Program-made: the position numbers and the translations under genes | Shown here: positions 3,828-45,727 of the stretch, piece after piece | Position numbering within the stretch: position 1 is the stretch's first letter | Layout of the letters: each line of letters opens with the position of its first letter | The notes under the pieces: model-generated | Told to the model about the DNA's origin: nothing | Database searches by the model: none | The model's input: only the letters and a program-made list of their open reading frames with translations | Source: an uncultured Gammaproteobacteria bacterium | GTDB lineage: Bacteria; Patescibacteriota; Patescibacteriia; UBA1558; 2-01-FULL-52-15 | Length of the DNA stretch: 60,660 nucleotides | NCBI GenBank assembly: GCA_964441335.1 | Contig: CAYTUI010000002.1 | Coordinates: forward strand, 1-60,660 | Direction: 5' to 3'

Positions 3828-6602
3828 ATGTTAGTTGTATTGGTCGCGTTTATTCTACTAGGAAGTTTATTTTTAGGAGCTGTTGTTTATTTTAGGAACA
3901 AAAGAAATAAACTAAACATCTATTTTGGTGTGATGGCAGTCGCTAATGCATGCTGGGCATTTGTAAATTTAATGTCCGCCTTTGATCAGAATGCAATTTG
4001 GGTCAGGCTTCAATATACGCTAGGCGCAATTCTTTTAGGAGCTGGCCTGGTGTGGTTTTTTTATTTAATTGAAAGAAAGTCAAATATTTTTCGAAGCATT
4101 ATAATATACCTTACTTCATTTTTTTTCGCTGTCACTAGTTTATATGGTGAATTGATAATTAAACGCGTTGATAAAATTAATTTTGGAAGTTTTGAGGGAG
4201 AATTTGGTTCGTTGTTCTTTTTTTACACCGCTTTTATTGGATTGACGCTAATTTTTATTGTTATCAGATTATTTGTTGAGACATTTAGATCAACTGGCAA
4301 TAGGAAATTGCAGCTCTTATATGTATCCTTCGGATCTATGGTTTTTGCTGCATTAGCGATTGTTCCAAGTTTTTTGTTGCCCCTTATTGGGTTTAATAGT
4401 TTTAGTCAGTTCGATCTTATTGGTTCTTTTATATATATATCGTTTATTACCTATTCGATAGTACGATATAGACTTATGAACATAAAGATGGTGATTGCCA
4501 GAAGCGTTTTATATTTTCTACTAGTCGCTACAGTAACAAGCTTTTTTACATTTGTTATTTTCTTAATTCGAGAAATTTTTGAAGTAAAAACTCGCATTTC
4601 AGAATGGGCACTGATTATGTTAGCGTCGTTTATAGTGGTAGTTGCTTTGGACCCGCTGAAAAAACTCCTTTCACGAGTCACTGACGATTTTTTTTACAAA
4701 AATAGAGTTAATTACGACCAACTCTTAAGAAATTTAAGTACTATTATCGCCCGAGAAATTGATATGGAGGTTCTGCTTCAACGCATAAAGGACACTTTAC
4801 AGAAAGACCTGAAAGTTAAAAATGTGGATATTGTGATCCACACTGATGGTTACAAAAAAATTAATAATCAGAAGTTTGAAGACTACGCTATAAATGACGA
4901 AATTATCAATTTGATCAAGAGCGCTGATGATATTATAGTCTTGGAAGAATACCGCAGAAAAGTTGAAGATATGTCGGCTTCAGTTTTAAGGGATAATGTG
5001 ACCAAAGCCATAGAGACTATGGATTCTTTAAATTGGCAATTGATTATCCCGGTGATAGTTGAATCCAAACTGACCGCTGTAATTATTTTGGATTATAAAC
5101 TATCCGGCGATGTATATAGTAAAGAAGATATCAGCTTCTTCAATGTTTTTTCTCCACAAATTGCTATCGCCATTGAAAAGTCCCGACTTTATGAGGAAGT
5201 GGAAAATTTCAATCTAGAGTTGAAAGAGAAAATAGACAGGGCAACCAAGAAATTAAAGACTGCTAATGTGGATTTGGGGGAGAGGAATAAGTTTTTAACT
5301 ATTACGCAAAATATCAGTAATTTGATTAGTCGTAATTTGGATATTAATAATGTTATTCAGATTATAGTTGATAGTATATCTACGGAATTGGGGTATATAG
5401 GTGGTATCTTAAGTTTCAAAGACGAGAGTAATAAATATCTTTATCCGGCGGCGATTACCCGGGGAGAAGCGGCTAAGAAGGGTTTGGCTTTATTGCCACG
5501 GCCGGTCAGCGAGTATAAGGCTAATATTGGTAATAAGGAAAATTTTGGAGTGCGCTGTTTCACTACCGGTAGCGCTATTACCAGCGATTCCTTTGCCGAC
5601 TTTTTCGCGCCGCCAATAGAAAAGGAAGCCGCGGATAAAATTCAACAAGCACTTAATATAGTAACAGTCGTGGGCATTCCTATCTACTCGGAAAATAAAA
5701 TTATTGGCGTCATTCATTACTTGTTAGCTATTAAAGAGGGAAGTATTAGTCGTTTGGATTATGAAATGATGAATAATTTGGCTGACCAAGTGGGTATCGT
5801 TTATAGAAACGTTAAACTGTATCAGCAGTTGGAGAATACTAATAAGAAATTACAGGAGGCTAATATCCATTTAAAACGATTGGATCAGGCCAAGTCCGAG
5901 TTTTTATCCATTGCTTCCCATCAATTGCGCACTCCAACTTCAGCCATCAAAGGCTATCTATCTATGTTATTGGAAGGGGATTATGGTCCGGTAAAACCTG
6001 AACAAAGGAAAGTGGTGGCTGTTGTTTATGAAAGCGCCGCGCGGTTAGCCAGATTGATTAATATCTTTTTGAATGTTTCCAGGATTGAAGCCGGCCGTTT
6101 TAAATTAAATAAAGCACCGACTGATATGAATGAAATTATTAAAGGTGTAGTAACTGAATTGCAACAGCAGGCCAAGACTAAAGATTTGGAATTAAAAGTC
6201 AATTTGCCGACTAAGGCGCCGATACTTAATGTGGACAGCGATAAGATCCGCGAAGTTGTTCTTAATCTGGTTGATAATTCCATCAAGTACACAGCAAAAG
6301 GTTTTGTGGAAATTAACAGCCGCGTCAAAGGGGATCGGTATGAATTTTGGACCAGAGATTCGGGTATGGGTATTAGGACCGATGAAGTAAATACGCTTTT
6401 CAAAAAGTTTGTCCGCGGGACAGGAGTGGCGCAGGTTAATACTGGTGGCTCCGGTTTAGGATTATATATTGCCCAAAGAGTAATTAAAGAACATGGCGGC
6501 CATATTTGGGCGGAGAGCGACGGCTTAGACAAAGGCAGTATTTTTAAATTTACTTTAGCTATGGATAAATCCCCGGATATTACGAGTGGGCATTTGAAGT
6601 AG
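3828..6602 (+). CDS. multi-pass membrane sensor histidine kinase with GAF-like regions
   Basis: About 8-9 N-terminal hydrophobic helices; H-box SHQLRTPTSAIKGY; G1 DSGMGI; G2 GGSGLGLYIA; no response regulator adjacent. Confidence 0.9.
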   Translation: MLVVLVAFILLGSLFLGAVVYFRNKRNKLNIYFGVMAVANACWAFVNLMSAFDQNAIWVRLQYTLGAILLGAGLVWFFYLIERKSNIFRSIIIYLTSFFFAVTSLYGELIIKRVDKINFGSFEGEFGSLFFFYTAFIGLTLIFIVIRLFVETFRSTGNRKLQLLYVSFGSMVFAALAIVPSFLLPLIGFNSFSQFDLIGSFIYISFITYSIVRYRLMNIKMVIARSVLYFLLVATVTSFFTFVIFLIREIFEVKTRISEWALIMLASFIVVVALDPLKKLLSRVTDDFFYKNRVNYDQLLRNLSTIIAREIDMEVLLQRIKDTLQKDLKVKNVDIVIHTDGYKKINNQKFEDYAINDEIINLIKSADDIIVLEEYRRKVEDMSASVLRDNVTKAIETMDSLNWQLIIPVIVESKLTAVIILDYKLSGDVYSKEDISFFNVFSPQIAIAIEKSRLYEEVENFNLELKEKIDRATKKLKTANVDLGERNKFLTITQNISNLISRNLDINNVIQIIVDSISTELGYIGGILSFKDESNKYLYPAAITRGEAAKKGLALLPRPVSEYKANIGNKENFGVRCFTTGSAITSDSFADFFAPPIEKEAADKIQQALNIVTVVGIPIYSENKIIGVIHYLLAIKEGSISRLDYEMMNNLADQVGIVYRNVKLYQQLENTNKKLQEANIHLKRLDQAKSEFLSIASHQLRTPTSAIKGYLSMLLEGDYGPVKPEQRKVVAVVYESAARLARLINIFLNVSRIEAGRFKLNKAPTDMNEIIKGVVTELQQQAKTKDLELKVNLPTKAPILNVDSDKIREVVLNLVDNSIKYTAKGFVEINSRVKGDRYEFWTRDSGMGIRTDEVNTLFKKFVRGTGVAQVNTGGSGLGLYIAQRVIKEHGGHIWAESDGLDKGSIFKFTLAMDKSPDITSGHLK

Positions 6603-6824
6603 CGTTTAATATAAGATTTAGCTTTTTATTACCGTGTAGCCTGACTACTCGGTTTTTAGTTTGTAGCCAATAGCAAGTCGTTACCAGTTAATACCAATTA
6701 GTAATTCCCTCATTACTTATTCTTCATTCCTTCGCCCAGCCCTCGGCCATGAGCTCGGGCCGAATGGAGGGCGATCAGGTCGGATGACCTGACATTCCTC
6801 ACTCCTCAATCCTCAACTAACTAA

Positions 6825-6852
6825 TTGACAAACCCTTTATATTTGCTAAAAT
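6825..6852 (+). promoter_or_regulatory. sigma70-like promoter (TTGACA, 16-nt spacer, TAAAAT)
   Basis: TTGACA at 6825-6830 and TAAAAT at 6847-6852, read directly from the sequence. Confidence 0.5.
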
Positions 6853-6865
6853 TGAGTCATTAGAT

Positions 6866-6959
6866 AGCCGTCCATTGACAATAAGCCGTCGCTAAACATG
6901 AGAGAAATTTGGTAGCCGTCGCATTAGCCTGTATATAACCGGAATACGACAGCCGTCGC
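6866..6959 (+). repeat. four same-orientation copies of AGCCGTC(C/G)C
   Basis: Copies at 6866-6873 (AGCCGTCC), 6884-6892, 6914-6922 and 6951-6959. Confidence 0.8.
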
Positions 6960-7158
6960 CAAATATAGCAGACAGGAAATAGGTGTATAAATGCTTTCAA
7001 GCCCTGCCCTTAGTATAAATATTGAGGATAGGCCTGGAAAAGCGGGTTTAGTTCATTACAATATGGGATATTGTCGGAGCTAAAGCTGTTTTATTTTCAT
7101 TGAGGTTAGGATCAACCCCTTGACCAAGGCGTTGAACAATTTAGATCAAACAATATCT

Positions 7159-7184
7159 ACAACCATTAAAGATGGTTGTTTTTG
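7159..7184 (+). terminator. intrinsic terminator / attenuator
   Basis: ACAACCAT-taaag-ATGGTTGT 8-bp stem followed by TTTTG, 32 nt before the ATG at 7216. Confidence 0.65.
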
Positions 7185-7215
7185 TTAAGAGAATGTTTTG
7201 TTTGAGTAATTAAAT

Positions 7216-7683
7216 ATGCACAAATTCCTACTAAAAATTGAATCGCCGATTGAAGATCAGCTTAGAGCGGCAATTGAAGCAGACTCTGTCCTTAATGTTT
7301 ACACGCCTTTTGAAAGTAAGCGTGCGTCTGAGAGCCATGAAGACTTTATAGCCAGAGTCAGAAGTGATGCCTCCAGATATCAGTTTGTAAGCGTTAAGTA
7401 CGACGACTCGTTCTACTATGTGGCCTTTGATTTCTCCGGTCCTCTCATAACTGCGTACGGAAAATTTCAGGTTATTCCTGCACAAGTTGTTGGTGGCACA
7501 TGGGGCGTTCATTACTGCATTTTTTACCCTGGATTAAGCAATGCGTTGGAGCAACAGGAAATTTTTGCGCGGATAGACTCCGGTTGCTTGTCGGGTATGA
7601 TTATGGGAGATATAACATGTGATTGTAAGAATCAACTTGAAGAGTCAATAAAAAAATTGCGCATCAAAAAAGCGGTGTCGTGA
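7216..7683 (+). CDS. GTP cyclohydrolase II family protein, N-terminal part (gene interrupted by a -1 frameshift)
   Basis: RIDSGCLSGMIMGDITCDCKNQL resembles the RibA zinc motif (C-x10-C-x-C); the ORF stops just after A7 and A6 runs. Confidence 0.7.
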   Translation: MHKFLLKIESPIEDQLRAAIEADSVLNVYTPFESKRASESHEDFIARVRSDASRYQFVSVKYDDSFYYVAFDFSGPLITAYGKFQVIPAQVVGGTWGVHYCIFYPGLSNALEQQEIFARIDSGCLSGMIMGDITCDCKNQLEESIKKLRIKKAVS

Positions 7684-8135
7684 TTGAAATACCTGGTCAG
7701 GATGGTAGAGGGTGGCATCAGTACAAGATGGCCAATCAGTATTTAATGAACGAGTTGGAAATGAATACAGTTGAGGCCGCTCGAGCCTTTTATAAGAAGG
7801 AGGAATATATTGATCGTAGATCCTACCATGAATGTGCTATCATTTTGCGCGCCCTAGGATTTAACGAGAACCACAGCTTTTCACTTGGTACGAATAACCC
7901 ATCCAAGACCAAAGCATTCCAGAGGTTTGGGTTTAATTTAAAGAGGGTAGAAACGGTAGTGGCCAAGGAATTGAGTGTTTATGCTATTAAAAACCTTAAC
8001 GCAAAACAGAAGGAGTGGAATCATGAAAAAAGACCTGAGACTGAAGGGACCGGTCGCGATAGAAGGATTGTCGGGGACCGGGAAAGGAACGGTCGCGAAG
8101 TTACTCGCGCAGCAGTTGGGGATTATGTACTTTGA
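7680..8135 (+). CDS. GTP cyclohydrolase II family protein, C-terminal part (frame -1 relative to 7216-7683)
   Basis: IEIPGQDGRGW, NTVEAA and TNNPSK segments resemble the RibA C-half; the last ~110 nt overlap cmk and look like read-through tail. Confidence 0.65.
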   Translation: MIEIPGQDGRGWHQYKMANQYLMNELEMNTVEAARAFYKKEEYIDRRSYHECAIILRALGFNENHSFSLGTNNPSKTKAFQRFGFNLKRVETVVAKELSVYAIKNLNAKQKEWNHEKRPETEGTGRDRRIVGDRERNGREVTRAAVGDYVL

Positions 8136-8706
8136 CATCGGCCTGGTATTTCGCGGGGCTACCTATCTTTACCAGCAGGGAATAATAAATAATCTTGCGG
8201 ATGTCTATGCAAAGATTTTGAAGCAGGATTTGGTGAAGTATGTTTGGGATGGTGGGCAATGTTTTTTTGAGGCAGATGGTCAGGATTTAACTGAACGCAT
8301 ACGGACAGAAGAGGTCGCGACTCAAACAAGCAGCATGCTCGTTAGTGGCGCCCGCATGAAAATGATGGGCTTGATAGCCAGAGCATTGGTTAGACAAGTG
8401 CAGGTGTATGTGTGCGACGGGCGCGCTGTGTCGCAGTTTCTGTGTCCTGACGCATCTCATGTGTTTTATCTGACAGCGGATGAACATGTGCGGGTGGATC
8501 GCCGATATCAGGAGCTGTTGGCACGTGGTCAATCTGTCAGTCGGGCTGACGTAGCTAGTCTTATCCGGGCGCGTGATAAGGCAGATATGGAACGGGAAGT
8601 ATATCCCCAGATTATTTTCCCAACCTATCACCTGATTGACACGACGTATTTGACACCGCAGTCTGTGCGTCAGAGACTTATGGGCATTATCAAGGAGACA
8701 ATATGA
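8023..8706 (+). CDS. cmk: cytidylate kinase-like
   Basis: P-loop IEGLSGTGKGTVAKLLA, RTEEV, CDGRA, LTADEHVRVDRR and ARDKADMER match type-1 CMP kinase; the ATG at 8023 is preceded by AGGAGTGG. Confidence 0.8.
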   Translation: MKKDLRLKGPVAIEGLSGTGKGTVAKLLAQQLGIMYFDIGLVFRGATYLYQQGIINNLADVYAKILKQDLVKYVWDGGQCFFEADGQDLTERIRTEEVATQTSSMLVSGARMKMMGLIARALVRQVQVYVCDGRAVSQFLCPDASHVFYLTADEHVRVDRRYQELLARGQSVSRADVASLIRARDKADMEREVYPQIIFPTYHLIDTTYLTPQSVRQRLMGIIKETI

Positions 8707-22641: not shown

Positions 22642-22680
22642 AACAAAGCCCCGAATTTAAATCAGGGCTTTGTTTTTTGT
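22642..22680 (+). terminator. intrinsic terminator
   Basis: AACAAAGCCC-loop-GGGCTTTGTT followed by a T-run. Confidence 0.7.
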
Positions 22681-22695
22681 TTTACTCTCCAAGTC

Positions 22696-22724
22696 TTGAC
22701 CCCATCCAAAATCTATGCTGATAT
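22696..22724 (+). promoter_or_regulatory. putative promoter of the GC-rich 162-aa gene
   Basis: TTGACC at 22696-22701; a weak -10 (TGATAT/GATATA) lies 17-18 nt downstream. Confidence 0.35.
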
Positions 22725-22759
22725 AGAGATGTTTTTCGTACCCTAACAGAGGAGGGCTG

Positions 22760-23248
22760 ATGGAAGGTAGCGGCAGGATTCCTAATCCGTTCACGACAGT
22801 GACGGCGACCCTGAATTACGAGGATTTGCCGGATTGGCTGAACGATTTTCTGGAGGGTAGGCCCAATAGAACAGTCGAGTTGGGTAAGCCGGTGGAAGTG
22901 CCTGCGGGGTCGCGGCCGGTTGATTTCTTGCTTCAGAGCTATGGCAAGCGCGAAAGTCGCTCGTCAAATCTGTTGCGGCAGGCGGCCATTCAGCTCCTGC
23001 AGATGTTGGTTTCCGGCGGTACGCTTGACGGTAGTAAGAAGTGGGATCAGCTGGTGGAAGACTTGGTGGTGCTGATCCGTGATCTGCCAGGAGATCATCA
23101 TCGGCAGAATCGCGAGGTGTATGTTGAGCTGGCTGCATCGTTGCGGGCAAGGGACAACGGACAACAGCTGGCGAACAACTTCGCTCTGGTTCTTTACCGC
23201 TTGGATTTCCTGCGAGAACGTCAGGTTCTGCTGGAAGGTCTGGCCTGA
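22760..23248 (+). CDS. hypothetical protein (162 aa), GC-rich orphan
   Basis: AGAGGAGGG SD 5 nt before the ATG; globular composition, unlike the overlapping alternative-frame ORFs. Confidence 0.6.
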   Translation: MEGSGRIPNPFTTVTATLNYEDLPDWLNDFLEGRPNRTVELGKPVEVPAGSRPVDFLLQSYGKRESRSSNLLRQAAIQLLQMLVSGGTLDGSKKWDQLVEDLVVLIRDLPGDHHRQNREVYVELAASLRARDNGQQLANNFALVLYRLDFLRERQVLLEGLA

Positions 23249-23254
23249 ACGAAG

Positions 23255-23290
23255 AAGCCCCACGTTGCTTGTGAGCGACGTGGGGCTTTT
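23255..23290. terminator. bidirectional terminator between convergent GC-rich genes
   Basis: AAGCCCCACGT-12 nt-ACGTGGGGCTT, a perfect 11-bp stem, with TTTT on the plus strand and TTCTTC on the minus strand. Confidence 0.7.
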
Positions 23291-23310
23291 CATATTGGCG
23301 ACCATGTTGG

Positions 23311-23655
23311 TCAGGGCTCGTGGGATCTGTCAATCAGATCGTTGAAGCTGTAAACACCGGTGTGGTCGTGGCTGACCTGTTTGTTCTCCAGTGATTTGTG
23401 CAACAGGTCGTTGTCAGCGGTCAGATGTCTGATCTGGTCTTCTTGTCGGTGGCTTCTTCTAACCGTCAGCTGGTCGAAGACAATCAGGAAGATGGCTAGA
23501 CCGATAAAGAACAGGCGGACTAGGATCCTGGCTGTCGTTGTTGATGTCACCCCGGTCAAATCCTGTGTCAGAGTCAGAGAGTTATCCGGCAAGTCCCAGG
23601 CCTGACCGGCGATCACCAGCAGAGCCATCACAACCATGTAGAGAACCATGCGCAT
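23311..23655 (-). CDS. hypothetical two-TM membrane protein (114 aa), GC-rich orphan
   Basis: Two hydrophobic helices then a charged tail; AGAAGGAGG SD; own consensus promoter. Confidence 0.6.
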   Translation of the reverse strand: MRMVLYMVVMALLVIAGQAWDLPDNSLTLTQDLTGVTSTTTARILVRLFFIGLAIFLIVFDQLTVRRSHRQEDQIRHLTADNDLLHKSLENKQVSHDHTGVYSFNDLIDRSHEP

Positions 23656-23706
23656 AGTTAGCCTCCTTCTGGCTGGTGTTTTCTAGCTTCTCGCTTGTCA
23701 AGCAGG

Positions 23707-36099: not shown

Positions 36100-36131
36100 A
36101 TAAGTTTTTTAGATTTTTACCGACCCCTCTT

Positions 36132-36216
36132 CCTCGCCGCTCGCGAGCGGCGAGGTCCGTCCTCCCCTTAACAGGGGAGGCTCCTTTAGTTAGAGCCCCT
36201 CCTTACCAAGGAGGGG
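36132..36216. repeat. three consecutive GC-rich hairpins/palindromes
   Basis: Perfect 24-nt palindrome CCTCGCCGCTCGCGAGCGGCGAGG (36132-36155); CCTCCCC-ttaaca-GGGGAGG (36161-36180); CCCCTCC-ttaccaa-GGAGGGG (36196-36216). Confidence 0.85.
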
Positions 36217-36236
36217 TAAGGGGAGGTCAATCGTAT

Positions 36237-36276
36237 AATTAGAAAACCCGCACGTTCCACTGATGTGTACTAGTGC
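36237..36276. repeat. 40-bp perfect direct repeat, copy 1
   Basis: AATTAGAAAACCCGCACGTTCCACTGATGTGTACTAGTGC, identical to 37001-37040. Confidence 0.95.
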
Positions 36277-36280
36277 GGGT
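36240..36280 (-). terminator. intrinsic terminator of the 195-aa gene
   Basis: Minus strand: ACCCGCAC-19 nt-GTGCGGGT followed by TTTTCT. Confidence 0.7.
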
Positions 36281-36310
36281 CTTCGTTGATCTGAAACCGG
36301 CTACAGGAGG

Positions 36311-36898
36311 CTAATCTCCAGTCTCATCGTCCTTGTGATCCTTGTGATAGTCGTGGACATGCTGAATGGCGTCCTTGATTCGTGACTCCACCCAGTCGAT
36401 GTTTGCTTTTCGACGACGAGCAATCTGTTTGATGGACAGTGGCTTGGCCGCCTTCCTGATTTCCTCTCCTTGCCTCCAGCGGAATCCGAAATAGTCCACC
36501 AGCAGGTCATACTCAATCCTGCTGATGACGCCACCTATGAACGCTGACTCTGCGGTTACATCTTCGTGTCCTATGCCACAGCCGAATAGCTTATGGGCAG
36601 GCCTTCTCCTCGGCGGGTACGTCTCTGTCATGTATTCTTGGATGCGCAATAGCGCATCCTCAATCAGCAGTTGGACTTTGGACGTTTCCATGCCCCTGAG
36701 CTTACCAACCTGGGTGTAGGTTCTCCGGCGTCCGAAGTGGCCGGGCTTGTTCGGGTTGATGTTGAAGTAGCAGTTCAGCAACTCCCGCTGGATACTGGTG
36801 ATGATCTTGAAACTGTAGACCTCCAAGATGGTCATCCGGCCTTGACCTCGACGGCAGCCAAGCAGTTCGTGAAGCGGAACGGTCTTTTGAGTGGTCAT
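36311..36898 (-). CDS. hypothetical DNA-binding protein with two tandem sigma-70 region-4-like HTH units, GC-rich orphan
   Basis: Internal duplication (LHELLGC... / AHKLFGC...), each unit ending in an HTH-like segment (TYTQVGKLRGMETSKVQLLIEDAL; SIKQIARRRKANIDWVESRIKDAI); AAGGAGG SD. Confidence 0.6.
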   Translation of the reverse strand: MTTQKTVPLHELLGCRRGQGRMTILEVYSFKIITSIQRELLNCYFNINPNKPGHFGRRRTYTQVGKLRGMETSKVQLLIEDALLRIQEYMTETYPPRRRPAHKLFGCGIGHEDVTAESAFIGGVISRIEYDLLVDYFGFRWRQGEEIRKAAKPLSIKQIARRRKANIDWVESRIKDAIQHVHDYHKDHKDDETGD

Positions 36899-36944
36899 AT
36901 TGCCTCCTTGGTGGATGGTGAAAGGAACTAAAATGTAATTGAAT

Positions 36945-36973
36945 AGGTTATCATTACTATGTTAGTATGTCAA
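36945..36973 (-). promoter_or_regulatory. putative promoter of the 195-aa gene
   Basis: Minus strand: TTGACA, a 17-nt spacer, TAACCT. Confidence 0.4.
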
Positions 36974-37000
36974 TATTTTGGTTGTAGTTATTTATTTGTC

Positions 37001-37040
37001 AATTAGAAAACCCGCACGTTCCACTGATGTGTACTAGTGC
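37001..37040. repeat. 40-bp perfect direct repeat, copy 2
   Basis: Identical to 36237-36276; here the upstream hairpin arm is degenerate. Confidence 0.95.
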
Positions 37041-37089
37041 AGTTTCTGTGAATGTCATGAAAATACTTTATTCCTAACTTAATTTAAAT

Positions 37090-37136
37090 AAAAAAACGGA
37101 CCCACTCAGCAGCTTGTTGCTGTCCTAAGTGGGTCC
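37090..37136 (-). terminator. intrinsic terminator of the 174-aa gene
   Basis: Minus strand: GGACCCAC-loop with a nested CAGCA/TGCTG stem-GTGGGTCC followed by GT7. Confidence 0.75.
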
Positions 37137-37159
37137 ATGAGTCGCGCTAGCGATGGCGA

Positions 37160-37684
37160 TTAGGCTGTGGGCCTACCGTGCCAGCCGAGAAGCAGGGGGA
37201 GCCAAGCGAAGTGTCGGCGTAGCCACGAGATGGGGTTGCCCATGACTTGCTCGGCCTCCCAGCTGATTGCCGGAGCGATGGAGCCGGCCCGGATGCGTCG
37301 ATAGAGTTCGGTTGCTACCTCGATGCTGTCCTGTCCCGTCGACAGGATGTGCAGCTTGTAGCACGGATAGTGCTCGGCGTTCCTGCCGATACCCTCAGTC
37401 CGAATCCCGTGATCAAGCGTGCCCTCGGCCTTACCAAGTCGGTAGAGTCCGATGGTTCGGCGAGCGGTACGATCGAACTCCTCGTATGCGGACGCCCCAC
37501 TGACCATCTCCAGGTAGTGGTTCAGAACGCTGGAACCGAGCGTTCCGTGTATACGATAGCCCTTTTCGTCACGGTAGATTGCATCTCCGAACAAGTGGGG
37601 CAGACCGTGTCCTGAAGGGCCGTCAGGCTGAAATGTGGCGTGTGATTCTACTGCGGACTTGTCCAGATAGATGTTGAGCGACAT
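37160..37684 (-). CDS. hypothetical protein (174 aa) with a hydrophobic C-terminal tail, GC-rich orphan
   Basis: GAAGGAG SD; globular composition, unlike the four overlapping alternative-frame ORFs; no motif recognised. Confidence 0.55.
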   Translation of the reverse strand: MSLNIYLDKSAVESHATFQPDGPSGHGLPHLFGDAIYRDEKGYRIHGTLGSSVLNHYLEMVSGASAYEEFDRTARRTIGLYRLGKAEGTLDHGIRTEGIGRNAEHYPCYKLHILSTGQDSIEVATELYRRIRAGSIAPAISWEAEQVMGNPISWLRRHFAWLPLLLGWHGRPTA

Positions 37685-37753
37685 TATGAGTCTCCTTCTA
37701 CTTCTTCTAGGGTTGTCGCTTGGTCACTATCACCGCGATGGCAATAGTTTATT

Positions 37754-37782
37754 AGCATAGCATATTTATAAAAATATGTCAA
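37754..37782 (-). promoter_or_regulatory. putative promoter of the 174-aa gene
   Basis: Minus strand: TTGACA, a 17-nt spacer, TATGCT. Confidence 0.45.
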
Positions 37783-37826
37783 TAGTAAGTAAAAATTGGC
37801 TATAATTAGCCCTTTATTTACACGAG

Positions 37827-37854
37827 TTGACATAATTACTAATTCTGCTAAACT
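37827..37854 (+). promoter_or_regulatory. putative rplJ operon promoter
   Basis: TTGACA (37827-37832), a 16-nt spacer, TAAACT. Confidence 0.45.
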
Positions 37855-37860
37855 ATTGAA

Positions 37861-38037
37861 GTACAAATTATTGCCACAGACAGTGGGCGGTAAGTCATGT
37901 GACGAGCCTTAATATCCCACCGAGGTAAGATCGTGGTCGGAATTCGGACTACATCCTTCGTAAAAATATCTGTGGTGTAAACCACTTTTTTTAATTGCTA
38001 CCAATCTACTTAGCTACTAATCTACTAAACTAAAGAA
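37861..38037 (+). promoter_or_regulatory. ribosomal protein L10 leader-like 5' UTR with an attenuator hairpin
   Basis: GC-richer structured segment (CCAC-agaca-GTGG, and others) ending in GTGGT-gtaa-ACCAC plus T7 at 37972-37992; position matches known rplJ autoregulatory leaders. Confidence 0.45.
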
Positions 38038-39523: not shown

Positions 39524-41650
39524 CTATTTATTAATCGCTAAAAGATAAATTTTATCTCCGTTGAGAATATAAATGGTTTTTTCGGCGCTGTCTATAACTA
39601 AGCTTTTCAGATTATCAAATTTCGGAGAAGTAAACTGATCTTTGATACTGCCGTCCTTACTGATGATAGCCACCCGTTTATTGGCAGGATCAAGGATGTA
39701 CAGAAAATCAGAGTCACGGTTTGTATAAATACTGCTATTAGCCCCAAAGGCTGGATTTGGCTTTTGATAGTTAAAGGCTTCTCGTTCACCTTTGAAGAGC
39801 TTAATTATTTCACCTTGGTCAGTAATCAGGTAGATATTGCCGTCAATGGCAAAGCTTTGGCTATTTGAAACAACAGTCGGTTCATCAAGCCAATAGGTTC
39901 CATTTTGAAACTTAGCGCCGTTACTGTAGCCATTGTGTTTCCAAATGGCGCCGGCCTGTCTGTCCAATAGATAGAGGTTATCGGAATAAATTAAAGCCTG
40001 GTCAATATTTTTAAAATCGCCGTTAGTGCTTAGCTCAACGCTTATTAGAGCGTTGTCTTTAACCAAACTTAGTTGGTTATTGATCATGGCAAAGATCAGA
40101 TTTTGGGAGCGGTTGGCGATTAAAAGAGTGGGTTGTAATTGATTGTCAACTATTTTAACCGGCTCACCGTTAATTTCATAGATGCCGTCACTAGCCGCAA
40201 ATTCTACTTTATCACCGACAATATTCATGTCATAAATCGGCTGGGCAATCTGCGACAGATCTTTAAATACCAAGGGATCGGCAATATAACTAATTTTACG
40301 GGCGTCATTTAATTGTCTGGCGATATTTTCCCGCAAGTCGTCCAGTTGGGTTTGTTGCTCTTGATTTAGCGGGGCGATGGAATTGAGCAGAGCTTCCATT
40401 TCCAGCAGTATCTGTTCGGCCTTTTGATTGTCTTTATAAATTTTGGCGCTGTCCACTTCGGCTTGTTTTTGTCCGATAGAAGCTATATTTTCGTTGAAGG
40501 CATTAATAGTTTTACTGGTCTGATTGCTTTGACCGCGGAAGATAATCACATTGACAAAAATTATCAGAACAACGGCCGTTGCTGTCAGTAGAATTTGATT
40601 TAGTTTGGAAGTTTTTTTAACACTGGAGGTGGCAGTGTTTAAAGCACCGTCAATTTTATTCCAGACATGTTTCTCTTTATCCTCGCGATATTTTTTACTA
40701 AAAATGAATTTTAGACCGGCCAGAATAAGTTTGATTATTAAAGTCGTAATCCTACCGATTATCTTAAAATATTCTACTGCGTAGTAAATAAAAATACTGA
40801 TAGCCGCCCGTAAACCTCGGATATTTATTATGCTACTGCCACGTCTCTTTAATAGGCGGCCCTTCCTGCTCTTGAGTCGCGGCTGTCCGGGGCGAACGTC
40901 AATGTCAGCTATTTCCTCACTTGGTTCTATTGCGTCTTTCCTAGGTTGACGACGCAGCTGACCTTTACTTAGACCAAAGGCCAGACCGGAGCCTTCTCTG
41001 ATAAATTTTAAAATTACAGCGTTAAAAGTGACAAAGCTAGGCACTTCCTCTAATAGATCTTCAAATCTGTGCACAGCTTCAACTGGCGGTAAATCCTTAA
41101 GAATCTGTTTGATTTTAATTTCCGAAATATAGTCGGTTAGTGTACCGGTTGTAAAAATAATTACATCATCGGGATTTAAAATTCCGCTGGAAATATTGCC
41201 GAATAGTTTCAATGGATTGAAATGAGGATTTTTTTCCGAAATGATGGCTAGTCTTTTTTGCTGTAGCAGTAAAGCCTGCAGATTGCCGATGTTGGCAAAG
41301 TGTATTTGACCTTTATCGCTTATGGCGACTAACAACCCCAGATCCCGAAGCCAGTCGCGATTTTTCTTTGGGGCAATCTCCGGTAAAAAGACATTGAGAG
41401 ATTTAAGAATTTCCTCTAGCAAAACTTCAGGATTAGTATCGTCAATTTGGTCAAATCCTTGGGCGACTTCTTTGATTATGGAGTCAACCAGATAGGCTTG
41501 ATCGGTTCGAGCACGGGGAAAGTCTATAATGATAATTAGTTTGGTAGAATCAGAGGAGCGGTGATTGCCAATGAAAATCTCGCTCTCATGGCGGCTACGG
41601 ACGGGGTCGTGCAGAAATAGTTTGCCAAATTGTATATGTTGTTCCATCAC
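39524..41650 (-). CDS. hypothetical membrane protein (cytoplasmic N-domain, TM region, large C-terminal repeat/beta-rich domain)
   Basis: Hydrophobic segments near residues 290-370; the N-domain is vaguely PP2C-like (not verified); the C-terminal half is beta-rich. Confidence 0.6.
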   Translation of the reverse strand: MMEQHIQFGKLFLHDPVRSRHESEIFIGNHRSSDSTKLIIIIDFPRARTDQAYLVDSIIKEVAQGFDQIDDTNPEVLLEEILKSLNVFLPEIAPKKNRDWLRDLGLLVAISDKGQIHFANIGNLQALLLQQKRLAIISEKNPHFNPLKLFGNISSGILNPDDVIIFTTGTLTDYISEIKIKQILKDLPPVEAVHRFEDLLEEVPSFVTFNAVILKFIREGSGLAFGLSKGQLRRQPRKDAIEPSEEIADIDVRPGQPRLKSRKGRLLKRRGSSIINIRGLRAAISIFIYYAVEYFKIIGRITTLIIKLILAGLKFIFSKKYREDKEKHVWNKIDGALNTATSSVKKTSKLNQILLTATAVVLIIFVNVIIFRGQSNQTSKTINAFNENIASIGQKQAEVDSAKIYKDNQKAEQILLEMEALLNSIAPLNQEQQTQLDDLRENIARQLNDARKISYIADPLVFKDLSQIAQPIYDMNIVGDKVEFAASDGIYEINGEPVKIVDNQLQPTLLIANRSQNLIFAMINNQLSLVKDNALISVELSTNGDFKNIDQALIYSDNLYLLDRQAGAIWKHNGYSNGAKFQNGTYWLDEPTVVSNSQSFAIDGNIYLITDQGEIIKLFKGEREAFNYQKPNPAFGANSSIYTNRDSDFLYILDPANKRVAIISKDGSIKDQFTSPKFDNLKSLVIDSAEKTIYILNGDKIYLLAINK

Positions 41651-41802: not shown

Positions 41803-42363
41803 ATGTTGGAACTAATTTTTGGTTCAGAGCTAAAAGCTGCCTGTTTGAAATTTTTTATTAATAATCCACAGGACGCTATACCCACCAAAGATCTTATTAG
41901 GCGGTTTGGCGGAAATGCGCCAAAGGTTCTGGCGGAACTCGCCAATCTGGAAAAATTGGGCTTTTTAGAAAAAGTGGCTGGTAAAGATGGTTTAGCTTGG
42001 AAATTAACGCCTGATTTTCCTTTGATTAACGAAATGCGAGCTTTGCTGTTTAAATCCCTAGTTCTTCTGGAGCACGCCTTGGTCCGCAAGGTACAACATT
42101 TAAGGGGCATCTCATTGCTGTTATTCACAGGCGTTTTTATAGGCCAAACGGAGATTGGAACCGATATTCTGCTGGTCGGCAGTATGGATAAGAAAGCTGT
42201 TAATCGGATAATGAATATTATTTCCGAGGAGTTTGGTCAGGATTTGCGTTTCACGGTCTTTACCAAAGCGGAATTTAACGAGCGCCGCGGCATGACCGAC
42301 AAGTTTATCTATGAGATTATCAATTCCAATCCTATTGTCGCTATTGATAATATGAAAAGTTGA
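41803..42363 (+). CDS. hypothetical winged-helix-like DNA-binding protein
   Basis: N-terminal wHTH-like segment (TKDLIRRFGGNAPKVLAELANLEKLGFLEK); the rest is unassigned. Confidence 0.5.
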   Translation: MLELIFGSELKAACLKFFINNPQDAIPTKDLIRRFGGNAPKVLAELANLEKLGFLEKVAGKDGLAWKLTPDFPLINEMRALLFKSLVLLEHALVRKVQHLRGISLLLFTGVFIGQTEIGTDILLVGSMDKKAVNRIMNIISEEFGQDLRFTVFTKAEFNERRGMTDKFIYEIINSNPIVAIDNMKS

Positions 42364-43103
42364 TGTTTTGGACTTTCGGAAATAAGAAAATATTTTATAC
42401 CGTTAAGCAGTCAAAGAATAGTCAGACTGACAAGTTGTTTGTGCTGGTGCACGGTATGGGCACTGATCATAACTATCATCTATTGAAATATCTAGCTGGC
42501 TTTTTGCTAAATTACGGCGCGGTTGTAGCGTTTGACTTATCCGGCTATGGTAAGAGCAGTGGAGGGGTAAAAGCCAGAAATGTGGAAATTTTTGTTGCCG
42601 ATCTGACAAAAGTTATTAACAGGTTGAAAAAAGACAGAAGATTTTCAAAGCGCAAAATAATAATCGTTGGGCATAGCTTAGGAGCCTTAGTCACTTTGAT
42701 AAATGCCGCGATTTTTAAATCACGTATAGCGGGCGCAGCAGTTATCGCTTCTAATGCGGAAAGTAACAGGTTATATAAGCAATATTGTGACAGGGGTGAT
42801 ATTCAAGAATATGCCTCTTATAGTTTGTTTAAGCGTCATAAGTTAGCGGCTGATTTCTGGCAGAGTCGTGCTCGTCTGCAACCACTTAAATTAGCTCGTC
42901 AAATTAAGTGCCCGGTTCTATTTATTTACGGACGCAATGACCGGACTAATCCCCCTAGTGAAGGTCAGAAACTTCTGCGGGCAGTTAAATCACCCAAGAA
43001 GCTGGTAATTATTCCCGGAGCCAATCATCATTTTACTAAGACCAAAGAACAGCAGGCCGTTTGGAGCTCTATTAAGCAGTGGTTAAAGATTTATGAAAAG
43101 TAA
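42360..43103 (+). CDS. alpha/beta-fold hydrolase
   Basis: VLVHGMG, GHSLGA nucleophile elbow, and C-terminal D and H (GANHHF). Confidence 0.8.
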   Translation: MMFWTFGNKKIFYTVKQSKNSQTDKLFVLVHGMGTDHNYHLLKYLAGFLLNYGAVVAFDLSGYGKSSGGVKARNVEIFVADLTKVINRLKKDRRFSKRKIIIVGHSLGALVTLINAAIFKSRIAGAAVIASNAESNRLYKQYCDRGDIQEYASYSLFKRHKLAADFWQSRARLQPLKLARQIKCPVLFIYGRNDRTNPPSEGQKLLRAVKSPKKLVIIPGANHHFTKTKEQQAVWSSIKQWLKIYEK

Positions 43104-43530
43104 AGCCAAGAGTCAGATATTATTAATGGATTCGTCTGAAAAGAATCAGCTGTCTTTCAGATTGTTGAGTCAAAATAAAGTTGAGCAGTCTGTCATGAGT
43201 GTTGAGAAATTGGATCAGGAACTTTTGCCTGCTATTGGCGCATTTATGAAATCAAATAAAGTTGCTTTCAAAAATATCCTAGCCCTGGGTGTGGTTAATA
43301 ACGCCGGCAGTTTCGTTAGTCAGAGGATTGCCTTGTCCGTAATTAATACTTTGGGCTGGGTAAATGATATTGTGCTATTTCCTCTGAAACATGAAGTTTA
43401 TCTCAAGATTGATTGGCAGACAGCTTTGATAGCTAGCAGACAGAATGGCAGAGCGCTGGTATTACCGCATTATTTAACCGGACCGACTATTACGCCTAGT
43501 AAGCAACAATATCATTTTAATAGTCGCTAA
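43093..43530 (+). CDS. TsaB-like protein (divergent, tentative)
   Basis: NNAGSFVSQRIALSVINTLGW resembles the GPGSFTGLRIG segment of TsaB; short and degenerate. Confidence 0.4.
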   Translation: MKSKAKSQILLMDSSEKNQLSFRLLSQNKVEQSVMSVEKLDQELLPAIGAFMKSNKVAFKNILALGVVNNAGSFVSQRIALSVINTLGWVNDIVLFPLKHEVYLKIDWQTALIASRQNGRALVLPHYLTGPTITPSKQQYHFNSR

Positions 43531-43795: not shown

Positions 43796-43831
43796 TGGTT
43801 GACCACGCTGCTCGCGAGCGGCGTGGTTGAC
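43796..43831. repeat. 20-nt GC-rich palindromic insert flanked by an 8-bp direct repeat TGGTTGAC
   Basis: TGGTTGAC (43796-43803), CACGCTGCTCGCGAGCGGCG, TGGTTGAC (43824-43831); shares GCTCGCGAGCGGCG with 36132-36155. Confidence 0.8.
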
Positions 43832-45415: not shown

Positions 45416-45727
45416 ATGCTTCAAACAAAAAACAAAAACAAAAATAGTCGCTGGTTCGCAATAAATGTCGCTTTACTAATTTTGCTCATCACATCATTCT
45501 TAACCCGTTTGATTTTTTCAAATTTTGCCGCCAACCAGACTTATGAGCTGACTAGCTATACCAAAAATCTTAAAGACGCTAGGACTCAAAATGAGCAGTT
45601 AATTTTAGCCTCTACAGAACTACAATCCATGGATCGCCTGATAAATGATAGTACTCGATTGAATCTGGTTAAAGTCGCTACAGTTTATTATCTTAAATCC
45701 CAAGGATCAGTTGCCATTAACAAATAA
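45416..45727 (+). CDS. ftsL: cell division protein FtsL-like
   Basis: Small single-TM protein with a coiled coil, located between rsmH and ftsI (call rests on synteny). Confidence 0.6.
   Translation: MLQTKNKNKNSRWFAINVALLILLITSFLTRLIFSNFAANQTYELTSYTKNLKDARTQNEQLILASTELQSMDRLINDSTRLNLVKVATVYYLKSQGSVAINK

Follow-up and report, generated by a model that had tools for sequence, protein, structure and literature searches.

A GC-rich island between mltG and rplJ

The DNA analyzed here is a stretch of 60,660 nucleotides (nt), hereafter designated as the window, which corresponds to contig CAYTUI010000002.1 of assembly GCA_964441335.1. Its source is a small groundwater bacterium of the candidate phyla radiation (CPR, Patescibacteria), a group whose genomes are tiny and mostly devoted to housekeeping functions. 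Between two such housekeeping genes, mltG and rplJ, it carries a pair of minus-strand open reading frames (ORFs) that are the subject of this study: a 195-aa ORF at 36311-36898 and a 174-aa ORF at 37160-37684, hereafter p195 and p174, separated by a gap of 261 bp. Both were taken from the ORF list, with the positions and lengths already given in an earlier note, which had read the two genes from the sequence as self-contained, GC-rich cassettes.

With an overall GC content of 41% for the window, the DNA of this island stands out at 52-62%. Sliding windows of 300 nt gave values of 0.52-0.55 across p195 and 0.56-0.62 across p174, and of ca. 0.40 in mltG and rplJ. The GC content at third codon positions (GC3) reaches 0.67 in p195 (z 6.1) and 0.69 in p174 (z 6.6), as compared to a mean of 0.393 for the 51 other ORFs of the window (sd 0.045, maximum 0.52), and p195 shows GC1/2/3 values of 0.54/0.38/0.67. 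The GC enrichment, initially counted by hand on single lines of sequence, is thus borne out by sliding windows and GC3 alike, and codon usage points in the same direction, with log-likelihoods of codon choice under window usage at z -3.6 for p195 and z -6.8 for p174. These data support a compositionally foreign nature for both genes.

The locus was also found in other assemblies, with 99.9% identity in a groundwater contig from ENA (L001) and 100% identity, including both copies of the repeat described below, in an independent JGI contig (L003). Since the same structure occurs in these other assemblies, the locus is not an assembly artefact. The last 82 nt of the JGI contig (2679-2760) diverge from the window inside mltG (window side 35572), so that either the contig end is chimeric or mltG is rearranged in the strain of origin. 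The chromosomal surroundings comprise uppP, ddl, manC, mltG, rplJ, rplL, mraZ, mraW, PBP, fpg, and iPGM.

Genetic organization of the two cassettes

The p195 gene is bracketed by two identical copies of a 40-mer, AATTAGAAAACCCGCACGTTCCACTGATGTGTACTAGTGC, located at 36237-36276 (copy A) and 37001-37040 (copy B). The 764-bp period reported for this pair is exact, and no further copy within 3 mismatches was detected in the window, with 0 expected by chance. On the minus strand, p195 is followed by GAAGACCC and copy A, a 137-nt spacer, and the convergent mltG stop. Together with the adjoining 8-nt arm GGGTCTTC (36277-36284), copy A makes up the predicted intrinsic terminator of p195 (36237-36284, minus strand), whose hairpin (36242-36284) combines a 12-bp stem with a downstream UUUUCUAAUU (-24.5 kcal/mol, z -2.4). 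Copy B, also read on the minus strand, forms the right-hand junction of the 764-bp unit; without the GGGTCTTC arm, it folds only into a weak, interrupted stem (-13.4 kcal/mol, z -1.6). The fold adopted by copy A and its arm thus indicates that the 40-mer corresponds to the loop, the 3' half, and the U-tract of the p195 terminator, the left copy being predicted as the complete terminator and the right copy as a truncated duplicate. No inverted repeats were found at the ends of the insert (36277 and 37000).

Upstream of p195, an AT-rich region (36899-37000, minus strand) is read by consensus as a promoter, a short leader, and a Shine-Dalgarno (SD) sequence. By eye, the promoter consists of TTGACA (36973-36968), a 17-nt spacer, and TAACCT (36950-36945), whereas the promoter scan reported instead TTGACA-16-CAAAAT at 37002; a second TTGACA (37002-36997) indeed arises at the junction with copy B. 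The SD, AAGGAGG, lies 6 nt ahead of the ATG.

The p174 gene has a comparable layout. Its SD (AAGGAG), a leader of ca. 60 nt, and its promoter occupy 37685-37782 on the minus strand, divergent from the rplJ promoter, and the promoter reads TTGACA (37782-37777)-17-TATGCT with an upstream TG. Its predicted intrinsic terminator (37090-37136, minus strand) is a hairpin (37098-37136) followed by U7 (-32.9 kcal/mol, z -6.0) and is separated from copy B by an AT-rich spacer of 49 nt. Promoter-like matches in the region numbered 3, as compared to 2.6 in shuffled sequences, which is no excess, and the promoters of both cassettes are best regarded as plausible. With this reservation the self-contained layout described earlier stands, each gene having an SD, a promoter-like site, and a terminator fold of its own.

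On the mltG side, the region that separates the p195 terminator from the mltG stop (36100-36236, assigned to neither strand) is a GC-rich, multi-hairpin spacer of 137 nt, in which three hairpins are enclosed by a long-range closing stem. Its folding energy amounts to -66 to -70 kcal/mol whichever strand is considered (z ca. -6), and part of the spacer (36159-36219, minus strand) gave a weak, below-threshold match to the whalefall-1 RNA (24.8 bits for a 37-bit cut-off). The spacer includes a 24-nt palindrome, CCTCGCCGCTCGCGAGCGGCGAGG, of which a 91% identical relative occurs in another intergenic region of the window (43801-43823).

On the opposite side, the rplJ promoter and L10 leader (37827-38001, plus strand) mark the host boundary of the island and lie outside the cassettes. 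The promoter reads TTGACA-16-TAAACT, and the Rfam L10_leader model matches 37856-38001 with 43.9 bits for a cut-off of 44 (E 3e-5), a match missed at default thresholds.

An empty site in a sister lineage

Searches among 5.8 billion proteins revealed just two close relatives of p174, with P0002 (74% identity) encoded on contig L002. This contig represents a sister lineage of the window with ca. 80% nucleotide identity (93% and 88% amino acid identity for manC and mltG, respectively), and it exhibits the same gene order, with manC, mltG, a hairpin spacer, the p174 terminator, p174, and the rplJ leader. At the junction, the sequence after the spacer includes GGTCAATTCTAA-AATTAGAAAACCCGCACGTTC-TCATTTAAATTT and leads to the p174 terminator, and p195, its promoter, and the second repeat are all missing. 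A single partial 40-mer is retained, namely its first 21 nt, AATTAGAAAACCCGCACGTTC. By alignment, L002 thus reads as the empty site for a 764-bp unit composed of 724 bp and one 40-mer. The suggestion that the 40-mer marks an insertion or recombination junction gains weight from this comparison, in which exactly the p195 cassette is absent and a single partial repeat is kept.

Non-coding DNA is ca. 73-92% identical between the window and L002, while the two 40-mers of the window are identical to each other. The duplication is therefore likely to be young relative to the split between the two lineages, which makes a gain in the window lineage the more economical reading. Conversely, p195 and its repeats might be ancestral, L002 having deleted the cassette between the repeats before the remaining copy eroded. 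Direct-repeat recombination is a common deletion route, and the half-hairpin of L002, functionless by itself, looks like a relic. However, 40-mers of that age should differ like the nearby non-coding DNA, and an additional deletion of 19 + 32 nt would be required in L002. We regard such a loss as unlikely, though it deserves more weight than the other alternatives considered below.

The manC-mltG-rplJ-rplL order is conserved across Patescibacteria, and the gap between mltG and rplJ ranges among relatives from ca. 150 bp, when empty, to 3.2 kb with unrelated cargo. Five genomes have an empty slot of ca. 150-260 bp and provide the junctions without an insert that the earlier note had proposed to look for. 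Two readings that the earlier note would have counted against its own proposal are not supported: the two genes are not conserved, syntenic core genes, as the cargo of the slot is variable, and the 40-mer is not a genome-wide terminator repeat, as it occurs twice in the window and was not found in metagenome and viral searches. For the 21-mer common to the window and L002, IMG/VR gave no match and the JGI metagenome contigs a single one, attributed to chance, in eukaryote-like DNA (L084).

Several differences between the two lineages affect the hairpins themselves. The L002 spacer keeps the closing stem and two hairpins but lacks the 24-nt palindrome; its second hairpin carries a large insertion, and a 19-nt palindrome occupies the loop of the third. 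Entire palindromes are exchanged or inserted in hairpin loops. The L10 leader of L002 carries two insertions.

Conservation of p174 and its leader

Comparing p174 between the window and L002 yielded 0.148 non-synonymous (pN) and 0.569 synonymous (pS) differences per site, with a ratio of non-synonymous to synonymous substitution rates (dN/dS) of 0.155 and a dS of 1.07. The latter value is close to those of the flanking genes mltG (1.31) and manC (1.04). This low dN/dS, together with a dS similar to that of mltG and manC, indicates that p174 is coding, has evolved under purifying selection, and has diverged along with its flanks. On this evidence, p174 is a real gene, older than the split between the window and L002.

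The same data bear on a more skeptical view, in which the island would contain no real genes, but GC-rich structured RNAs or assembly artefacts with spurious ORFs. GC-rich intergenic DNA in AT-rich genomes often signals non-coding RNA, and chance ORFs get long in GC-rich DNA, where several overlapping ORFs are listed at this locus. Yet the changes in p174 are mostly synonymous (pS 0.57 vs. pN 0.15) and its product belongs to a family of 29 protein clusters (see below); p195 displays an internal duplication at the protein level, GC3>GC1>GC2, and a strong SD; Rfam gives no hit for the genes, and the structure recurs in three assemblies. Such a view is highly improbable.

The p174 promoter, leader, and terminator are collinear in the window and L002, with one change in the terminator. 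The leader (37685-37740, equivalent to L002 295-353) includes 51 nt that are 100% identical, though synonymous sites are saturated, and its conservation thus exceeds that of the coding sequence. This segment folds no better than shuffled sequences (z -0.66) and had no match in IMG/VR. It is a candidate operator or protein-binding site. A 17-nt inverted repeat (37742-37758 / 37842-37858; core CAATAGTTTA / TAAACTATTG), partly kept in L002, overlaps the -10/start regions of both p174 and rplJ; it could represent a shared operator, or indicate that the p174 promoter derives from an inverted duplication of the rplJ promoter.

A rare protein family without annotation

Exhaustive HMMER searches of 1.84 billion cluster representatives revealed a p174 family of 29 proteins at E<=1e-3 (5e-37 to 7e-4; full-length alignment A5). 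Its members are characterized by the signature MS(I/L)N(V/I)YL ... P.R..G.Y....A.A.LD ... ELYRxIRAGxIxPxESWExEQ, with invariant residues G79, Y81, G134, and P138, to which the window protein conforms with MSLNIYL, R76/G79/Y81/A86, and ELYRRIRAGSIAPAISWEAEQ. None of the 29 members had a match in Pfam, NCBIfam, PHROGs, PADLOC, or PDB, and the sole name found in source records is 'hypothetical protein [Patescibacteria group bacterium]'. These searches place p174 in a family of Patescibacteria proteins that is rare and lacks annotation.

One lead to a function was discarded. A tblastn search of plasmids pointed to a JAB/MPN (JAMM) protein (database E 0.8; 36% identity over 77 aa with a Prok-JAB protein of Pseudanabaena), but the HxHx7Sx2D motif is replaced by P-S-G...G..I, and hhalign comparison with the family profile gave a probability of 0.7%. 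The PDB entry 2aua_A matched the region of the P.R..G.Y motif with a non-significant E of 1.1. As a best guess, p174 would be a small accessory protein located in the cytoplasm and expressed at a high level.

Ten other family loci were read besides the one common to the window and L002. At all ten, the gene is isolated between intergenic stretches of 150-600 nt; its promoter is near consensus, TTGAC(A/T)-17/18-TAnnnT, in most cases extended by a TG, and its terminator is of the hairpin + T type. The neighbors are unrelated housekeeping genes, including murE/tRNA-yqeY, two tRNAs-mscL or nusA, dnaE-ftsW, def/fmt, uvrB, rplW, and udg. The GC3 of the family gene exceeds that of its flanks at 9 of 11 loci, often by 0.17-0.35. 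Taken together with the variable mltG-rplJ slot, these loci show p174 to be accessory and to travel with all the elements of an expression unit.

In other genomes, eight members of the family have in common a structured leader RNA located directly upstream of the SD, at L086 5929-6003, L089 5926-6003, L093 3927-4003, L094 3926-4003, L096 286-355, L098 1506-1581, L099 1197-1268, and L100 109-187. This RNA is composed of P1, P1b, and a P2 hairpin with a GAGCA-type loop; 85.8% of its cells are paired, compensatory changes occur at 9 of 16 pairs, and the covariation score (0.469) is well above that of shuffles (0.231 +/- 0.037) and slid controls (<=0.123). The derived covariance model, R1, scored 61-76 bits at ten family loci and found nothing elsewhere, and no counterpart was detected in Rfam at gathering thresholds. 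R1 had no hit in the p174 leader of the window (37685-37750), its best score in the window being 9.9 bits, nor in L002 or L092, and the window leader has merely a short ACCAAGCGAC-type stretch in common with the R1 RNA. Its absence from the window leader implies that the leader RNA belongs to another p174 subfamily.

Several observations were made around these family loci. In contig L086, four consecutive GC-rich, stand-alone cassettes (5040-8400), including a p174-family gene, adjoin a tRNA gene, the 5' end of which is partially duplicated nearby; two of the cassettes encode paralogues (35% identity), and one of these two is flanked by a perfect 84-nt inverted repeat (6741-6824 / 7670-7753). 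Contigs L086 and L087 seemed at first to differ by an exchanged cassette, but their DNA is identical and the gene calls alone differ. Contigs L089 (6593-6744) and L090 (3065-3210) have the same cassette and left flank, with mscL or nusA as the right flank, and their homology stops at a ca. 140-nt element repeated elsewhere in the contig, which suggests a repeat-mediated rearrangement. A perfect palindrome of 18-20 nt, CCTGCCTGCCGGCAGGCAGG, forms a clean insertion in L002 (1047-1064) relative to the window and also occurs in L086 (5049-5066, inside the partial tRNA duplicate), in L092 (7017-7034), and in 35 IMG/VR stretches (L101-L135) from ca. 30 mostly GC-rich viral contigs, sometimes in multiple copies. 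This palindrome resembles a small hairpin that either is mobile or evolved convergently. As a mark of the cassettes, the palindrome CTGCCTGCCGGCAGGCAG (18-20 nt) was rejected because its occurrence in ca. 30 mostly GC-rich viral contigs designates a generic strong hairpin.

The window itself contains a second GC-rich island (22680-23700), which consists of two convergent orphan genes at 22760-23248 (plus strand, 162 aa) and 23311-23655 (minus strand, 114 aa, with a hydrophobic N-terminus). Both genes are preceded by a strong SD and converge on a common bidirectional terminator (23255-23288). Neither had a Pfam match, and with GC3 z-scores of 5.2 and 6.6 they are the sole further outliers of the window.

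The p195 protein and its relation to p174

The two halves of p195 align by BLASTP with an E-value of 5e-8 (23% identity over 88 aa), and the internal duplication is real, with two diverged repeat units. Both units display a helix followed by a helix-turn-helix (HTH)-like pattern (I..I...LL..YF ... S..QIA). The duplication noted earlier thus holds, while the sigma-70 region-4 HTH ascribed to each unit is weaker than thought: Pfam Sigma70_r4 matched the first unit only, below threshold (E 0.025; 14.5 bits for a cut-off of 24.1), the halves scanned alone gave no match, and no sigma region 2 was found in p195. A profile of the halves weakly matched the HTH of the Mu late activator C in PDB (E 0.9-1.2, 47 residues). 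Below every curated threshold, the HTH assignment is plausible, and a monomeric DNA-binding protein with tandem HTH-type domains is the most likely identity of p195, with about an even chance of being correct. The HTH-like pattern of both units resembles sigma-70 region 4 and the Mor/C activators, from which p195 differs by its sub-threshold scores, the missing sigma region 2, and a tandem-duplicated architecture with no detectable homologue. A role as sigma-70 or extracytoplasmic function (ECF) factor was discarded, region 2 being absent and Sigma70_r4 below the Pfam gathering score.

In a word-indexed search of 5.8 billion proteins, p195 retrieved only itself (the exhaustive HMMER search was for p174 alone), and no relative was found in phages, in plasmids (tblastn), in PDB, or at any of the loci fetched. 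Neither p195 nor p174 had a match above threshold in Pfam, NCBIfam, PHROGs, or PADLOC, and sequence or profile comparisons with PDB returned nothing below E 0.04 and nothing meaningful.

The two genes were previously seen as a regulator and its effector, p195 being in such a case the dedicated transcription factor of p174 in one accessory system. They are adjacent, on the same strand, and alike in GC richness, and p195 has weak HTH-like segments. The view is, however, hard to reconcile with L002, where p174 has an identical leader, a near-identical promoter, and the marks of purifying selection, yet no p195; nor was a p195-like neighbor present at any of the 10 further family loci, and in the window each gene has a promoter and a terminator of its own, with 261 bp between the two genes. 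We consider a dedicated pair improbable, and the earlier proposal is not upheld. Rather, the occurrence of p174 without p195 in L002 and at ten loci suggests that the two genes were acquired at different times. A type II toxin-antitoxin pair was rejected for similar reasons (separate promoters and terminators, the 261-bp gap, and a partner missing in L002 and at the other family loci), and toxin domains were detected in neither protein with PADLOC and Pfam.

Origin of the two cassettes

Taken as a whole, the island probably consists of two independent, horizontally derived single-gene cassettes that entered the variable slot between mltG and the rplJ leader one after the other. The p174 cassette would be the older one, present before the L002 split and retained by purifying selection, and the p195 cassette would have been inserted after this split, directly downstream of the p174 terminator. 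Based on the geometry of the junctions, integration of p195 most likely occurred by a single crossover between a copy of the cassette, circular or linear, carrying the full terminator and a relic of this same terminator already present in the chromosome, either by homologous recombination over 40 bp or with a recombinase provided in trans. Such a crossover would give the left copy the cassette arm, and hence a complete hairpin, and leave the chromosomal flank with the right copy, generating identical direct repeats.

Several points weigh against this scenario. The GC3 of p174 is ca. 0.69 in both the window and L002 (360-884), despite a dS of ca. 1 and a host GC3 of ca. 0.4; as a rough amelioration estimate needs a starting GC3 >1, an old horizontal gene transfer (HGT) followed by amelioration does not predict this value. 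The high GC content of p174 would then be either kept by selection or a biased process, or refreshed by flank recombination from a GC-rich pool. For p195, L002 has only 21 of the 40 nt and misses ca. 32 nt more, which leaves room for a loss in that lineage. Searches revealed no donor and no additional copy of the p195 cassette, the p174 cassette, or the 40-mer, so that the case for p195 being mobile is built on a single presence/absence comparison. Finally, the promoters are consensus matches alone, and AlphaFold2 models, with predicted local distance difference test (pLDDT) values of 38.5 for p195 (single sequence) and 40.2 for p174 (3 sequences), are unusable for function.

No recombinase or phage genes were detected among the called genes between 27.4 and 47.5 kb (12 scanned). 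In this interval, six genes of 32.4-39.0 kb were identified by their translations and synteny, three scanned ORFs (39524-41650, 41803-42363, and 43093-43530) had no family match, and a 103-aa ORF (45416-45727) was left unscanned. These data are relevant to the idea that Patescibacteria have a pool of autonomous cassettes moved by site-specific recombination at terminator-like hairpins, in a manner reminiscent of integrons but with promoters and with a recombinase encoded elsewhere. The repeat does form a hairpin, the mltG-rplJ slot is a recurrent insertion site, and the same window has a second GC-rich two-gene island; moreover, p174-family cassettes occupy many positions, often near tRNA genes, partial tRNA duplications, and repeated palindromic elements. 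Against this idea, the called genes of the interval include no identified integrase (the above three ORFs and the small unscanned one being among them), the hairpin has no attC-type R/L boxes, other cassettes bear different terminators with no common site, and flanking direct repeats occur at one cassette only. It is, in our opinion, rather unlikely.

A broader formulation, speculative and itself unlikely, would see an undescribed pool of single-gene cassettes in Patescibacteria, each with a strong promoter, an ORF, and a terminator, one subfamily having in addition a conserved structured leader RNA. These cassettes would keep a GC-rich composition of their own regardless of the host and hop between slots by means of hairpins, with p195 as a fresh integrant and the p174 family as widespread cargo endowed with an autoregulatory leader RNA.

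Comparison with known mobile elements

Two stacked cassettes acquired at different times, as favored here, can be compared with several known systems. Phage morons are autonomous promoter-gene-terminator modules of deviant composition that were described in lambdoid prophages. The cassettes resemble them as single genes with a sigma-70-type promoter-like site, an intrinsic terminator, and a deviant GC content, located between unrelated genes; they differ by their manC/mltG/rplJ/rplL flanks and the absence of PHROG hits. With no phage genes around the locus in the interval scanned, the prophage setting of a moron is missing, and we know of no moron featuring a 40-bp terminator duplication. The term 'moron-like' used in the earlier note is thus apt for the single-gene promoter/terminator architecture but not for the context, a housekeeping chromosome without prophage.

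Integron cassettes are likewise small single-ORF units bounded by hairpin repeats, in a slot that gathers unrelated cargo. Here, however, the genes have promoter-like sites of their own and repeats are found at one cassette only; no recombinase domain indicative of an intI integrase was found in the genes scanned and no attI nearby, and the hairpin region (36237-36290) contains no attC boxes (RYYYAAC/GTTRRRY), to which GTTCCAC and GTTGATC (GTGGAAC and GATCAAC on the other strand) do not conform. Campbell-type integration and islets with att-like repeats provide another parallel, with identical direct repeats, an insert absent in a close relative, and one repeat-equivalent at the empty site of L002, but the present insert is just 764 bp, has no integrase, and its repeat is a terminator instead of the end of a tRNA gene. 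A DDE transposon, insertion sequence (IS), or miniature inverted-repeat transposable element (MITE) was rejected, with neither terminal inverted repeats nor a transposase domain being found, and a target duplication made by a transposase was rejected because 40 bp is too long in comparison with the usual 2-14 bp. In the literature, only general work on HGT in Patescibacteria was found (PMC12455944).

The locus is best described as belonging to an already known type, that of small horizontally acquired islets or morons, with the younger p195 cassette still bearing a terminator-derived 40-bp scar of its insertion.

Implications for gene flow in Patescibacteria

Genes that are acquired and retained in CPR genomes are informative about the lifestyle of these bacteria. 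The locus described here offers a clean and datable gene gain in such a genome, combining an empty site in a sister lineage with a junction repeat derived from a terminator, and it draws attention to a protein family, rare and without annotation, that moves as a complete expression unit and stays GC-rich within AT-rich hosts. Should the cassettes be immobile, they would amount to an ordinary pair of orphan accessory genes; if it is true that they move via hairpins, they would represent a new route of gene flow in Patescibacteria.

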